Below, in pieces: positions 760 through 34,135 of a DNA stretch of 64,000 bases (position 1 is the stretch's first letter; each line of letters begins with the position of its first letter). Origin of the DNA: a virus. Lineage: Duplodnaviria > Caudoviricetes. The notes beneath the pieces are model-generated. The model saw only the letters and a list, made by a program, of their open reading frames with translations, did no database searches and was not told where the DNA came from. A program made the translations under genes and the position numbers. Location of the stretch: the IMG/VR virus record IMGVR_UViG_3300014204_000010, positions 1-64,000 of that record; one strand, 5' to 3'.

Positions 760-959
760 TTATGGATAAATGTCGGAATCACCCCGAAAGACATGCAGTT
801 TGTTGGCGTAAACCATTAAACTTTGACGAACCCCCGGAGGTACTATTGTGTCTTGCTTGTGCAATAGAAGAAGATCATGCCGGGATTTTGACAGAAGAAC
901 GAACTCTTCGGTTAGATGAGGGAAGACTTCGGAGAAAAAGCAGAGGGAAGCCCGAGTAA
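756..959 (+). CDS. Small Cys/His-containing hypothetical protein
   Basis: ATG 756 overlaps upstream TGA; CRNH...CW...CLAC possible metal site. Confidence 0.6.
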   Translation: MIMDKCRNHPERHAVCWRKPLNFDEPPEVLLCLACAIEEDHAGILTEERTLRLDEGRLRRKSRGKPE

Positions 960-999
960 TCGGGCTTTAATGCACACGATCGGTCCCAAGTCCGATCGT
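948..999 (+). terminator. Tandem stem-loops, possible terminator or processing site
   Basis: AAGCCCGA-GTAA-TCGGGCTT (GNRA loop) and ACGATCGG-N8-CCGATCGT followed by AATTTT. Confidence 0.6.
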
Positions 1000-2260: not shown

Positions 2261-2295
2261 GGCGTCTAATAAACTAAGGGTTGGAAGACGCTTTT

Positions 2296-2339
2296 TCATA
2301 TCTTTTGCTTGACAATATGATTTGAAAGAGATATGATTT
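2296..2339 (+). promoter_or_regulatory. Sigma70-type promoter with overlapping operator-like boxes
   Basis: TTGACA (2309-2314), 17 bp, TATGAT (2332-2337); ATATGATTT direct repeat at 2315 and 2331; inverted TCATAT at 2296. Confidence 0.8.
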
Positions 2340-3792: not shown

Positions 3793-3822
3793 CTACGGGC
3801 TTTTCAGTTTTTATGATATACT
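3793..3822 (+). promoter_or_regulatory. Extended -10 promoter, CNNCGG class
   Basis: CTACGGG ... TGATATACT; CGG 21 bp before the -10 hexamer as at 13656 and 27899. Confidence 0.65.
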
Positions 3823-6242: not shown

Positions 6243-6389
6243 ATGGAAAAAGAAATAGACGAAGAAGTTTGGAAAAAAAGATGGACTAAGTTAGTCGAAG
6301 ACGCCGCTGAAGCCATTGAAATCTTCGGAGAGGATGAATTAGAAGAATATGCCAAACGCCTACGTAGACATAATACGGTACCTGAATGA
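6243..6389 (+). CDS. Small acidic helical protein (48 aa)
   Basis: Hand-translated MEKEIDEEVWKKRW...; AAGGAGG upstream; overlaps primase start. Confidence 0.45.
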   Translation: MEKEIDEEVWKKRWTKLVEDAAEAIEIFGEDELEEYAKRLRRHNTVPE

Positions 6390-7245
6390 CCACCACATTC
6401 ACATTGACTATGCTGGGAAGAATGTATCCGAAGGGTGGATAGGGATTCGCTGTATCTTCTGTTCGGATCACTCCAATCATTTGGGGTTTAATATGTCCTC
6501 AAAGGCATATAATTGCTTCAAGTGTGGCCAGTTTGGCAATGTTGTTGATTTTATTCAGATTCTTGATCGGTGTGACCTGAAGCAGGCCATAAGGATCTCC
6601 AGATCATATCAGAGCATTGATTCTTTCATACCCCCTACTGAAAAAAAGCGGTCCTCCGCAGACTCAGCACAGCTCCCATTCGATTCCACAAAGCAATTCA
6701 AGACAAGACATCTCGAATTTTTACGCAGCAGAAGGTACGAACCGGAGAAGCTGATTAAACAATATGACCTCTATGTTACTGGACCTTCGGGTGATTTCAA
6801 GCACCGGATAATAATCCCTGTGTTTTACAAAGGGGAGATGGTTACTTACGTCGGAAGAGACTTTACTGGAAGAGCGGAAGTTCCATATAAGAACTGTCCT
6901 GATGAACGCTCCGTAATCTCCCCGAAGAAAATACTTTATAACCTGGATGAGACAGATTCTACTCTTTGTTGGGTGGAGGGTTTCTTCGATGTGGCCAGAT
7001 TCGGTGAAGGTGCAGTCTGTTCGTTTGGTACTAAATGGACTTCAGAACAATTGGCTTTACTAATTGGTAAGAAAAGACTCTATATCTGGTTTGATGGGGA
7101 TGCCCAGAGAGAAGCAAAGCGGTTAGCTAGTGCGGCTTCTGCATTTATTCCCCATGTAGAAAACTTAAATTTCCCTGAAATAAAGGATCCTGACTCGTTA
7201 TCAGATGCGGAAATGTCGGAAATAAAAGAAGAATTAGGGTTTTAA
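6349..7245 (+). CDS. dnaG: DnaG-type DNA primase
   Basis: N-terminal zinc finger CIFC..H...CFKC; TOPRIM WVEGFFD, FDGD, KDPD. Confidence 0.9.
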   Translation: MPNAYVDIIRYLNDHHIHIDYAGKNVSEGWIGIRCIFCSDHSNHLGFNMSSKAYNCFKCGQFGNVVDFIQILDRCDLKQAIRISRSYQSIDSFIPPTEKKRSSADSAQLPFDSTKQFKTRHLEFLRSRRYEPEKLIKQYDLYVTGPSGDFKHRIIIPVFYKGEMVTYVGRDFTGRAEVPYKNCPDERSVISPKKILYNLDETDSTLCWVEGFFDVARFGEGAVCSFGTKWTSEQLALLIGKKRLYIWFDGDAQREAKRLASAASAFIPHVENLNFPEIKDPDSLSDAEMSEIKEELGF

Positions 7246-7253
7246 ATATTTTC

Positions 7254-7282
7254 TTGACATATCAATTTAGCTGTGATCTAAT
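7254..7282 (+). promoter_or_regulatory. Sigma70-type promoter for the initiator operon
   Basis: TTGACA, 17 bp ending TGA, TCTAAT; predicted +1 near 7289. Confidence 0.75.
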
Positions 7283-7288
7283 TGCAGC

Positions 7289-7462
7289 GTTCGGGTAACA
7301 AAAGGATTGTAGAAGCGGGGGGAAGTAATTGTGCCTATTTACCATAAAAGCTTTTTTGCAGAGTTGGGTGGACATCTCTACTATTCTTTAGCCCGAACAG
7401 CCAAGAATAAAGACATGTTGCTTAAACCCCGGTCTACCCGATTCTGCAATAAAGCTTTTTTT
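7289..7462 (+). ncRNA. Structured leader or small RNA with two mutually exclusive long helices and U7 tract
   Basis: Helix A 7289-7313/7377-7398; helix B 7346-7373/7432-7459 (27 of 28 paired, 3 G-U); T7 at 7456-7462. Confidence 0.7.
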
Positions 7463-7517
7463 GTACCAACTTTTCCTGAATCACCACCAAAATAAAATAT
7501 AAAGGGGGAAAAATGTT

Positions 7518-7727
7518 ATGCTGGATGACCAAGTTAAACCTTTGTACTTTGGAGACGGGGAAGACCCAGATGAAGACGATTGGGATGATGAAGAGGACGA
7601 CTTCGAAGACGAAGAGGACGATTGGGATGACTTTGAAGATGAAGAGGAAGAGGACGACTGGGATGAGGAAAACGATATAGATGATACCCCAGACGATGAG
7701 GAAGATGAAGACGAGGTGGAAGGTTGA
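7518..7727 (+). CDS. Extremely acidic 69-aa peptide
   Basis: 46 of 69 residues D/E, periodic W/F; GGGGG SD; TGA overlaps TTG start of initiator. Confidence 0.75.
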   Translation: MLDDQVKPLYFGDGEDPDEDDWDDEEDDFEDEEDDWDDFEDEEEEDDWDEENDIDDTPDDEEDEDEVEG

Positions 7728-9286
7728 AAACTGAGCTTCAGCAGAAACTGGGTTGGGCTGCTGGGATTGAAGAGAACAGAGCCTTAGTAAGGATCCTAGG
7801 ACCTGTGGAAGCAATAGTACTGTTTGAGTTACTTATTGAGGATGGGAAAACTGATAATGAATGGTTTTCCCTTCCTCAAACCCTCATTGCAGAAAATACA
7901 GGGATTTCTTTCCGCAGACAAATCACAACCCTAGAAAAACTTACATCAGTTAACGGTGTTCTGACCCGTGTTCTCAAGGGTATGCCCGCTCGATTTTACT
8001 ATAAAATCAACTACCAAAGGATTGAGGAGCTTCTCAGTTCTAACAAATTGTTAATACAGCAAAACGCCTGTAAACCAGCGGAAAATTGCAGTTTAGACAA
8101 ATTGTTAATACTGAGAAAACCTGAACCCCAGGATAAGTCTCAGTTTAGACAAATTGTGAATACAGCAAACCCCGTAGTTTTAACACCTAAGAAACCGGTT
8201 TTAACGCTGAAAAACACAGTAATTCTCACGCCTAAGGTAGCGGTTGCAGGGTTGACATTGAAAGCCTCGGTAGTAGGCCAAGAGAAAGAAGAAAAGAAAG
8301 TAATACAAAGAAAAGAAGAAAGAGAAAATAAGGAAGGGAGTAATTATACTAATCCTAATAATAGTTATAGTAATATTAAACCTATTTTCCTTACGGAAAA
8401 TAGGGGCACTCACTTCTCCGAGGTGAGTGCGGCCACTGCTGCTGTGCAGCAAAAACACACCCTTGTTAAGAGGGATACAACTGAGGATTTATGGAAAGAT
8501 AATTATAAAGGCTTTGTTGGTACGGTTGAAACTTCTCCGGAAGCTGAGGCTATTATCTCTTTCTGGAAAAGTAACGGTCTCAAATGTCGGAATAAAGGTA
8601 CTAAGGGTTACATTAAAACCCTCCAATATATTCGGGCAGCTCTGAACGGTAGTTTGTACAGCCAGAACAGACCTGATCTTGCCGGAGTAGAATATACCTT
8701 GGAAGGAATTAAAGGTGCTATTAAGAACTTTGCTCTCGCGGCATTTCATCCGGAGTACGAACCAATATCCTTTGTCAAGAAGCAATTCTACCAAAAGGTT
8801 ACCCTTGATTGTTTCTTCTATCAGCAGTTTTCTCCTGGGGATGAAAATAAAAGGTTATTCTTGACCTTCTTGAAAAAACCGGAGACAGCTCGTCCTAAGT
8901 TTGCTCGTAGGGAAGAAGAAGGTGAAATCTCTAAGGTGGCTACGAAAGTATTGATTGACTGGTTTACAAAGAAAGGTTATCCCTACTCTGAAGAAAAAGA
9001 AGGGGAGGCTTTTGTGGCGGCATCGAATGCCATATTCAGGTTTTACCACGATCACAAGAATGACCTCCTCATAGATACATTTGACTACTGGGGAAGGTTA
9101 TTTGGGCTGACAGACCCAATACAGATAATGGCTCAATTGGTAACCAAAAGCTTCGATGCAAAGCTTCTGGAAGGAAAGAATCAGAAGAACTTTAATCCAG
9201 GATGGGTGGCTTCTGAATTACGTCGTCCGGATTATTTTGTTCGTTACCTAAAAGACAACAACATCCTGAGGTCGGCAAAGAGATGA
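7724..9286 (+). CDS. Replication initiator / replisome organiser
   Basis: N-terminal winged helix (EWFSLPQTLIAENTGISFRRQ..LEKL); internal iteron-like repeats and AT-rich tract; directly upstream of DnaB. Confidence 0.75.
   Translation: MKTELQQKLGWAAGIEENRALVRILGPVEAIVLFELLIEDGKTDNEWFSLPQTLIAENTGISFRRQITTLEKLTSVNGVLTRVLKGMPARFYYKINYQRIEELLSSNKLLIQQNACKPAENCSLDKLLILRKPEPQDKSQFRQIVNTANPVVLTPKKPVLTLKNTVILTPKVAVAGLTLKASVVGQEKEEKKVIQRKEERENKEGSNYTNPNNSYSNIKPIFLTENRGTHFSEVSAATAAVQQKHTLVKRDTTEDLWKDNYKGFVGTVETSPEAEAIISFWKSNGLKCRNKGTKGYIKTLQYIRAALNGSLYSQNRPDLAGVEYTLEGIKGAIKNFALAAFHPEYEPISFVKKQFYQKVTLDCFFYQQFSPGDENKRLFLTFLKKPETARPKFARREEEGEISKVATKVLIDWFTKKGYPYSEEKEGEAFVAASNAIFRFYHDHKNDLLIDTFDYWGRLFGLTDPIQIMAQLVTKSFDAKLLEGKNQKNFNPGWVASELRRPDYFVRYLKDNNILRSAKR
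8035..8400. repeat. Putative replication origin: three ~30-bp iterons plus A-rich/AT-rich tract
   Basis: CAGTTyWRACAAATTGTkAATACwG copies at 8035, 8089, 8141; AT-rich 8280-8400. Confidence 0.7.
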
Positions 9287-10857
9287 TCATTAACCGGGAA
9301 AAGATAGATACAGCCATTGAGAACCAAATAACTACAGCGATGATTTTATCCACTCGTTATTTAACCGAAATCTTTACCTTGTATGAAGCGGAGTACATGG
9401 TAAACCCTTATGCCAAAGTTATATGTGCTTGGTGTATTGACTACTACAAGGTTCATGGTAAAGCCCCACAAGAAACTATTCGGGATATATACGAATTGGA
9501 AAAAGGTTATATGTCCGATGCTGATGCCCAGATAGTCTCAGCTTTTCTCTCCAAGATAAGTAGGGAGTATGTTTCGGGACAGTCGGTGAATGACGAGTAC
9601 GCCTTGAAGGAATCCCTCAGCTACTTTAACCGAAGGAACATTACTGTACGAGCTGAGAAAGCTCTCAGGTTATTGGACTTAGACCGTCATGAGGAAGCCC
9701 AGCAAGTTTTCACTGACTACAAACAGGTTTCTTATCAGCTTTCTGGTTGGTTTAATCCCTACGATCCTCAAGGTATTTGGGAAGTGTTTGATCCTAGCAC
9801 TCAAGGTATTCTACAGTTACCCGGAGCTGTAGGGGAGATAGTCGGTCCGATTGAAAGGGAATGGTTTGTAGCTTTACTCGGACCGTTCAAGAGAGGCAAG
9901 ACCTTTGCTCTGATGAAGATGGCTAGATGGGCCGTCGATCAGAGATTAAAGGTGGCTTTCTTCTCCCTGGAAATGAAGAAGAAAAATATCAAGGAGAGGT
10001 TTGCAAGAGACATCACAGGATATGGTGTGAAGAATGGTTCAGGAGAGGAAGAGATAGTCTATCCTGTCTTTGACTGCATTCATAACCAAAGTGGGGAGTG
10101 CAACCGTCCAGAAAGAACTAATCAAGAGAGTCTGGTAAATGTGGTAACAGGTTATACCGCAGACTCGTTTAACCGAGAACTCACTTATAGGGCATGTACA
10201 GCTTGTAGGGGTCAGGGAAGACTGAGTACCTTCAAGCAGACTGTCTGGTTTGAGACGGCTCAAGTGCCTGCGTTCGACTTCCGAAACACCTTCGACTTCT
10301 TGAAAAGCTATGAAGAAATCTATGGGTCGGAAAATCTGAAAGTTATCCCCTACCCAAGATTCAAAGCTTCCCTCGATGACATCGAAAGAGATTTGTTTTC
10401 ACTGGAAGTAAACACAGGATTCATTCCCGACGTAATTATAATTGACTACGCCGACATTCTCTTGCCTAACAAGTCAAGAGAGGGTAGAAGATTTGAGGTA
10501 GACGACATCTGGAAGCTTCTCCCAGCTATGGCGTCGGAACGAAAGTGCATAGTCATTTCAGCTAGCCAGGGTAATAGGGATTCTGTTTATTCAGATGCCT
10601 TAGGTCAAGACGACATCGCTGAATGGATTGGGAAGTTTGCTCATGTGGATATATTTCTCTGTTTGAATCAAACTCCTGAAGAGAAGCGGAAGAATCTACT
10701 TAGGCTAGGTATGCTTGCCCACAGACACAAGGACTTCGATGAAGAGAGAATGGCTATGATCGTGCAACAACTAAGGGTCGGTCAGTTCTGGTTAGACTCA
10801 GAAGTTATCCGGTACGAAATAGACCGAGAAGCGAAAGCAGCTAAGAAGAGGAGGTAG
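9283..10857 (+). CDS. dnaB: DnaB-family replicative helicase
   Basis: GPFKRGKT, FFSLEM, IIIDYADIL, SASQGNR, AHVD motifs; Cys-rich insertion. Confidence 0.9.
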   Translation: MIINREKIDTAIENQITTAMILSTRYLTEIFTLYEAEYMVNPYAKVICAWCIDYYKVHGKAPQETIRDIYELEKGYMSDADAQIVSAFLSKISREYVSGQSVNDEYALKESLSYFNRRNITVRAEKALRLLDLDRHEEAQQVFTDYKQVSYQLSGWFNPYDPQGIWEVFDPSTQGILQLPGAVGEIVGPIEREWFVALLGPFKRGKTFALMKMARWAVDQRLKVAFFSLEMKKKNIKERFARDITGYGVKNGSGEEEIVYPVFDCIHNQSGECNRPERTNQESLVNVVTGYTADSFNRELTYRACTACRGQGRLSTFKQTVWFETAQVPAFDFRNTFDFLKSYEEIYGSENLKVIPYPRFKASLDDIERDLFSLEVNTGFIPDVIIIDYADILLPNKSREGRRFEVDDIWKLLPAMASERKCIVISASQGNRDSVYSDALGQDDIAEWIGKFAHVDIFLCLNQTPEEKRKNLLRLGMLAHRHKDFDEERMAMIVQQLRVGQFWLDSEVIRYEIDREAKAAKKRR

Positions 10858-34036: not shown

Positions 34037-34040
34037 GATT

Positions 34041-34120
34041 CGGGCTAACCCTTAAACCTCTCGGGGGTTAGTTCGATCAGGGGAGAGCGGGAAAGAAACC
34101 CCCTCGGTCCCGCTCTCCTC
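34041..34120 (+). promoter_or_regulatory. Tandem RNA hairpins upstream of sbcD
   Basis: CGGGCTAACCC/GGGTTAGTTCG and GGGGAGAGCGGGA/TCCCGCTCTCCTC. Confidence 0.6.
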
Positions 34121-34135
34121 ATTAATTAAAAGGAA

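Follow-up and report, generated by a model that had tools for sequence, protein, structure and literature searches.

The window analysed here comprises the first 64 kb (64,000 nucleotides) of a phage genome of 89,373 bp, which is complete, carries direct terminal repeats and comes from an uncultivated source. Positions 7246 to 7517 hold no genes, and this gap of 272 nt is the largest of its kind in the 89-kb genome. The genes around it lie on the plus strand throughout and belong, for the most part, to a replication module:

6349-7245, plus strand: DnaG-type primase (Pfam and PHROG 47), upstream of the gap
7518-7727, plus strand: gene for an acidic protein of 69 aa, the first gene downstream of the gap
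downstream of the acidic gene, plus strand: 520-aa protein, the N terminus of which matches PHROG 9773, "replication initiation O-like" (E = 7e-8)
9283-10857, plus strand: DnaB-like helicase, downstream of the 520-aa initiator

The TGA stop codon of the acidic gene overlaps the TTG start codon of the initiator gene (7724-7727), and a search of 5.8 billion proteins returned no close homologue of the initiator. Within the 520-aa gene there are three 32-nt direct repeats (8032-8169, plus strand), which are 75 to 88% identical, are spaced 54 and 52 nt apart, and share the core GACAAATTGTTAATAC. Judged by their sequence and by their lambda-like placement within an O-like initiator gene, these repeats are probably the iterons of the replication origin. 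As the iterons lie inside the initiator gene, the origin is probably there rather than in the gap, and a replication origin in the gap was rejected on this ground.

Structured elements were also seen elsewhere in the genome. A Type-P5 twister self-cleaving ribozyme (939-995, plus strand; 58 bits, gathering score 37.6) lies ahead of the gene starting at 1082, and the 99 nt between genes at 34037-34135 (plus strand) fold at -48.9 kcal/mol into two adjoining G+C-rich hairpins of 13 bp, which are highly stable and lack a U-tract.

The dominant feature of the gap is a long helix, here helix B, which consists of the following parts:

7346-7373, plus strand: 5' arm of helix B, including an A4 tract and a U6 run (7352-7357)
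7374-7431, plus strand: interior of helix B (58 nt), which holds the 3' arm of a second helix (helix A, see below), a 7-bp hairpin and a CCCC run (7427-7430)
7432-7462, plus strand: 3' arm of helix B (7432-7459), running into a U7 tract (7456-7462), a terminator-like 3' end

A preliminary description of this locus had proposed that helix B is one state of an attenuator-like, two-state RNA switch heading the replication operon. Helix B itself is as that description had it: 27 of 28 positions pair, three of them as G-U wobbles (7370-7435, 7365-7440 and 7363-7442), with one U-U mismatch (7355/7450), and U7 contributes its first four residues to the final four pairs of the stem. For the whole element of 117 nt, the folding energy is -44.0 kcal/mol, compared to -21.2 +/- 3.0 kcal/mol for dinucleotide shuffles (z = -7.5), and the duplex energy of the two arms, -43 kcal/mol, was equalled in none of 2,000 shuffles. 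The interior on its own is unremarkable (z = -0.93) and has nothing tRNA-like about it; the small hairpin described within it (TATTCTT at 7382-7388 with AAGAATA at 7403-7409) is likewise present in the best fold.

To place helix B in the context of the genome, an explicit helix-length scan of both strands was used (one mismatch or fewer, G-U pairs allowed, span up to 300) in place of a sliding-window energy scan, which discriminated poorly. With 27 pairs, helix B is longer than any other helix found on the two strands of the 89,373-bp genome. The runners-up have at most 23 pairs and lie within coding sequence, and the maxima from 20 Markov-shuffled genomes range from 18 to 23.

Several properties of the helix B 3' end are those of a factor-independent terminator. 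The stem closes with the pairs G7350-C7455 and C7351-G7454 directly before U7, with the A4 tract on the 5' side, and U7 is one of only nine T runs of at least seven on the plus strand of the genome. We count these features in favour of an attenuator, together with the existence in the same genome of another large-looped hairpin. The latter (2261-2295), followed by U5, has a 21-nt loop and is part of an ordinary terminator-then-promoter junction (2261-2337, plus strand) in which the stem GGCGUCU/AGACGC and U5 are followed by TTGACA-N17-TATGAT. This junction shows sigma-70-type signals in use by the phage, as well as tolerance of large loops in its terminators. Terminator loops usually measure 3 to 8 nt. 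Helix B, at 24 to 28 bp with a branched interior of 58 nt, falls outside the compact-hairpin form (stem of about 5 to 14 bp, loop of about 3 to 8 nt), and a consensus terminator scan did not call it. Termination at helix B may therefore be weak or absent, given the 58-nt interior and the A-U-rich lower stem with its U-U mismatch.

As an inverted repeat, the element can also be considered at the level of DNA, as an operator or accessory origin site, a cruciform, or the relic of a mobile element, with the RNA structure being incidental. The minus strand of the B element does fold almost as well as the plus strand (-42.3 versus -44.0 kcal/mol), and the motif TTGCAG-NN-T-N(1-2)-GGG occurs three times in the gap, twice in direct and once in inverted orientation (7282-7295, 7356-7368 and 7437-7449), with a single further copy elsewhere in the 89 kb. 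Against this reading, the probable origin lies elsewhere, at the iterons, and the repeat has no other copy in the genome, in the viral and prokaryote collections, or among known phages. All three non-Watson-Crick pairs are, moreover, G-U on the plus strand; this strand argument is weak, since the minus strand folds at nearly the same energy, and it is the context of U7 and the orientation of the genes that carry the plus-strand reading. The 13-nt motif was also considered as an operator or iteron and set aside, as its third copy in the gap fits chance (estimated p of ~0.1, with the choice of region allowed for) and its fourth copy is within coding sequence. Overall, we regard a DNA-level role as the least probable of the explanations weighed here. 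The first copy of the motif gives 7282-7295 the potential to pair with the 3' arm of helix B as well.

The same duplex might instead be a processing site, at which the RNase III of the host cuts helix B and so separates the primase and initiator messages, or trims the leader, and sets their stabilities. RNase III needs about two helical turns of duplex. Near-uninterrupted double-stranded RNA of ~20 bp, as in RNase III substrates, is present with some to spare in the 27 of 28 pairs of helix B, which stands at an operon boundary, and the phage makes use of RNA cleavage elsewhere, at the Twister-P5 ribozyme. What cleavage leaves unexplained is the position of U7 exactly at the foot of the stem and an open frame, led by a ribosome-binding site, which runs through helix B (see below). 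The genome also has no other long duplex, so this is not a repeated processing signal. A search of the phage itself for genes encoding RNase III or a sigma factor gave only a sub-threshold match resembling sigma region 4, at 80511. We therefore consider RNase III processing an unlikely main function, although, by analogy with lambda sib/tI, terminator and RNase III functions could coexist in one element.

Transcription of the leader would begin at a promoter-like site at the upstream edge of the gap:

7249-7282, plus strand: promoter-like site, with a TTTTCTTGAC box that contains the -35 element TTGACA (7254-7259), a 17-nt spacer ending in TGa, and a -10-like TCTAAT (7277-7282)

The start of transcription is predicted near 7289. 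The site is base-for-base in register with the three clear TGn-extended -10 promoters of the phage, at 3793, 13656 and 27899, the -10 regions of which read TGaTATACT, TGcTATAAT and TGaTATAAT. While its -35 element is perfect, it has a C in place of the key A that is expected at the normally essential second position of the -10 hexamer, which is why a consensus promoter scan did not call it. Further evidence comes from related phages (L001, L002 and L006, described below), in which the 11-mer ATTTTCTTGAC, found here at 7249-7259, also heads the equivalent operon (L001, 3022-3032; L002, 1343-1353; L006, 2338-2348). These phages share the 11-mer in spite of only ~50% protein identity, with an estimated chance probability of ~0.01, so that a functional site at this position is likely and a promoter at 7254 is plausible from sequence comparison. 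In the relatives, ATTTTCTTGAC forms the left half of an inverted repeat, CTTGAC-N17-GTCAAG, and could serve both as an operator and as a -35 box.

Downstream of U7, there is no extended -10 or consensus promoter between 7462 and 13677. As no credible promoter is found in this interval, the replication genes must be transcribed through helix B and U7, which implies that helix B is not a full stop. Both transcripts from the 7254 promoter and any read-through from the primase operon would have to cross helix B in order to reach the replication genes. Most likely, then, helix B with U7 is a leaky or conditional stop signal in front of these genes. The attenuator-like layout of the preliminary description holds to this extent: a plausible promoter is followed, ~170 nt on, by a strongly non-random hairpin and U7 ahead of the initiator operon. 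The two-state switch that was built upon it is not supported, as detailed below.

The same layout of a promoter and a terminator-like end would also suit a small RNA gene, in which efficient termination yields a trans-acting RNA of ~174 nt and the replication genes are reached through an unrecognised antiterminator, in the manner of lambda pR'-tR' and Q. Phage leader transcripts that are short and terminated can have a function as small RNAs (PMC7547250). The element is, however, not conserved, and the complete 89-kb genome has no match to the Q-type antiterminator families PF06530 and PF03589 at E = 1 or better. When the translation start regions of the phage were screened as trans targets, none scored above shuffled controls. 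A dedicated small RNA gene thus seems highly unlikely.

To establish how widely the element is distributed, we used family models and related genomes. As in the preliminary description, which recognised no known RNA family here, Rfam gave nothing at the gathering score in the gap, including self-cleaving ribozymes and the preQ1 and THF riboswitches; the latter two were checked because the phage makes 7-deazaguanine. With a permissive filter, the best matches had E = 0.08 or worse and were eukaryotic miRNA and snoRNA models, or SAM-III at 19.5 bits against a threshold of 45 bits. Relatives were sought with the helicase in IMG/VR, JGI metagenomes and GTDB genomes. The syntenic relatives, from IMG/VR and JGI metagenomes, have helicases 48 to 53% identical, primases 40% identical and initiators 27 to 29% identical to those of this phage. 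Their equivalent gaps are shorter and have no helix B element; L004 has no gap at this position, and L014 is a fragment that lacks synteny.

A covariance model built on the B element (R1) had no match in three relatives, searched over their full records, or in the rest of the genome, structural pattern scans of DNA found no match in IMG/VR or GTDB genomes, and blastn of the element against 50,697 phage records returned only chance or low-complexity matches. The only second copy of the gap, from an independent Logan assembly (run SRR18595299), matches it at every position (100% identity). The gap is therefore no assembly artefact, but the copy provides no variation from which covariation could be judged.

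What the relatives do have is a different hairpin. In L001 (3079-3105), L002 (1400-1426) and L006 (2395-2421), a 10-bp stem-loop, AUCAAAGCAG-UAAAC-CUGUUUUGAU, is followed by the U-rich UUUGCAAUC and sits downstream of the conserved box and ahead of the first operon gene, in leaders with fold z scores of -1.8 to -2.3. This hairpin may be the functional counterpart of helix B.

We then asked whether a second helix, as proposed in the preliminary description, could control helix B:

7289-7313, plus strand: 5' arm of helix A, pairing with 7377-7398 as 8 + 7 + 5 = 20 pairs with two interruptions

Helix A would form first, trap the helix B 5' arm inside a closed loop and block helix B topologically, which allows read-through; in the other state, an antisense RNA or a protein on the 5' arm of helix A would let helix B and U7 form and terminate transcription. 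Part of this stands. Helix A exists, its arms interleave with those of helix B, and in a folding series of the growing transcript it is the best fold for 3' ends from 7398 to 7446, with helix B taking over only from ~7452. The two states are within a few kcal/mol of one another at the decision point, and it can be argued from the topology of kissing complexes that a loop already closed would not admit the winding of a long helix for as long as the polymerase holds the 3' end.

However, helix A is at the level of chance. The transcript that carries it (7289-7431) has z = -0.29, shuffling of the upstream part alone gives z = -0.55, and the duplex energy of -24.5 kcal/mol is equalled or beaten in 17.6% of shuffles. 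Helices A and B also have no nucleotide in common, so that any exclusivity between them would be topological only, which is conceivable while the polymerase holds the 3' end, and would not involve competition for bases. To our knowledge, competition for shared bases is a feature of every classical attenuator. As an antiterminator, then, helix A is indistinguishable from shuffled sequence and has no overlap with the helix it was to pre-empt.

The suggested analogy to the antisense-driven attenuation of pT181/pIP501-type plasmids is likewise unsupported, as the shared-arm competition of those systems is absent and a promoter scan of both strands of 6800-8000 gave no site at its threshold, with only weak minus-strand candidates found by eye. 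A ribosome on the frame described next would in any case melt the 3' arm of helix A. Taken together, we regard the A/B switch as quite improbable.

A different input to the gate, and a better-supported one than helix A, is a short open reading frame that the preliminary description had overlooked:

7317-7333, plus strand: ribosome-binding-site-like GGGGGGAAG (7317-7325), forming an anti-Shine-Dalgarno duplex, and GTG start codon (7331-7333)
7331-7495, plus strand: open frame of 54 codons, a leader peptide candidate, spanning both arms of helix B and U7
7493-7549, plus strand: local fold in which residues 7500-7505 of the next ribosome-binding site and the ATG (7518) of the acidic gene are paired

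The duplex of GGGGGGAAG with the anti-Shine-Dalgarno sequence has an energy of -9.4 kcal/mol. A site as good is found at only 1.4% of spurious ORF starts, and 33% of real genes have one as good or better. GGGGGGAAG lies 8 nt before the GTG at 7331; its G5 type and its spacing are also those of the ribosome-binding site of the 7518 gene. Among shuffled gaps, 7.4% contain a frame of at least 54 codons, and 0.12% contain one whose ribosome-binding site is equally strong, the latter figure being a post hoc estimate made after the frame was noticed. The frame also fits the promoter: the distance from 7289 to the GTG at 7331 is 42 nt, and in the other promoters of the phage a ribosome-binding site and start codon follow within 20 to 55 nt, a geometry for which an untranslated leader of 229 nt would be exceptional.

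The coding properties of the frame are less like those of a gene. Its codon score is neutral, its GC skew is negative, unlike that of the genes of the phage, and for its 54-aa product neither the relatives nor 1.84 billion representative proteins gave a credible homologue. For these reasons, the sequence more likely encodes a lineage-specific leader peptide than an ordinary gene product.

The frame stops at 7495, 8 nt before AAAGGGGGA, the ribosome-binding site of the 7518 gene, and the 54-codon, acidic and initiator frames may be chained by translational coupling. In the transcript from 7289 to 7560, the local fold that follows has pair probabilities of ~0.97 to 0.99, and the stop codon of the 54-codon frame is part of its base. 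This fold could mask the start region of the 7518 gene, both ribosome-binding site and ATG, but its z is only -1.55. The one leader holds a G6 run (7317-7322), the CCCC run (7427-7430) and a G5 run (7504-7508), and CCCC could mask either of the G-run ribosome-binding sites through a pseudoknot. G runs of at least six occur only seven times on the plus strand. Together with helix A, such pairings of CCCC with the G runs may add further states to the leader.

The explanation that we favour, while holding it only tentatively, is that helix B and U7 form a conditional intrinsic terminator within a translated leader, of the pyrBI type, which gates the operon for the lambda-O-like initiator and DnaB-like helicase. 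In the Escherichia coli pyrBI attenuator, the classical example of such control, the leader frame runs through the terminator and a ribosome trailing the polymerase blocks the hairpin. Here, helix B with U7, located within the replication operon's leader, would form a terminator-type hairpin on the plus-strand RNA that works independently of factors, and the gate would be translation, not helix A. A ribosome would load at GGGGGGAAG and the GTG at 7331, cover first the foot of the B stem, where G7350 follows the GTG by 19 nt, and then the whole of the 5' arm; with the 5' arm covered, the hairpin would be prevented from forming and transcription would read through. Transcripts that are not translated would end at ~7462 and give an RNA of 174 nt. 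Suppression by translating ribosomes of intrinsic terminators located in or just after a frame is described in two reports (PMC4824070, PMC5021804).

Helix B and its uniqueness, U7, the frame led by GGGGGGAAG and the lack of a promoter downstream are observed; we infer the termination, the translation of the frame and the relief of one by the other from a single sequence. Points counted against this translation-gated attenuator are that the element is an orphan, that the frame has the codon score, GC skew and lack of homologues noted above, that the -10 element has its C, and that the minus strand folds as well as it does. The gate also presupposes coupled transcription and translation and would fail in bacteria without such coupling.

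Since the initiator gene contains the origin iterons, a leader gated by translation would also control the transcriptional activation of the origin. In this fuller form, in which transcription of the initiator depends on ribosomes translating the 54-codon frame through an exceptionally long and branched terminator hairpin, and in which origin activation is controlled as well, the proposal is more doubtful, and we would call it rather unlikely.

To better define how this leader relates to characterised systems, we compared it to several. The closest in logic, pyrBI, likewise has a promoter-proximal hairpin and U-tract inside a short frame with its own ribosome-binding site, U-rich runs ahead of the 3' arm, and a downstream operon that depends on read-through. 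In contrast to pyrBI, the stem here is 28 bp and closes a 58-nt interior, the operon is one of phage replication, there is no sequence relation, and translation and termination are predicted.

The leaders of pT181, pIP501 and pAMbeta1 share with it a terminator-like structure in the leader of an initiator gene and an alternative upstream pairing; in those plasmids, however, the pre-emptor shares bases with the 5' arm of the terminator and a countertranscript gene is present, whereas here helices A and B share no base, no antisense promoter was found and helix A is at chance level. The IncI1 (repY-repZ) and IncB (repB-repA) plasmids resemble it in having a short leader frame before the initiator, coupled frames and possible crossing helices, but they act on translation by means of a small pseudoknot and an antisense RNA, and their defining pairings are not identifiable here.

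Among phages, the lambda pR'-tR' (6S) region with Q, and StxS of Shiga-toxin phages (PMC7547250), show a similar succession of a constitutive promoter and, within 200 nt, a terminator that has to be overcome before a long operon is expressed, with a short RNA as a by-product. The lambda region controls late genes and needs Q, while the present leader precedes a replication module and no Q-family domain was found. The early RNase III sites of T7 and the retroregulation site sib/tI of lambda have in common with helix B a long double-stranded stem between phage transcription units, and the lambda tI/sib hairpin serves both as a terminator and, in its extended form, as a substrate of RNase III. 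The T7 sites differ in being compact hairpins with an internal bubble and no U-tract, many to a genome, as opposed to a single site with U7. The logic of the leader thus matches known leader attenuators, namely pyrBI, the lambda pR'-tR' layout and the plasmid rep leaders, while its sequence belongs to none of them.

If the translation-gated attenuator is correct, the supply of initiator and helicase would be tied to translation of the leader, as perhaps would transcription across the origin. Helix B and the 54-codon frame would then constitute a checkpoint between the translation capacity of the host and the replication of phage DNA.
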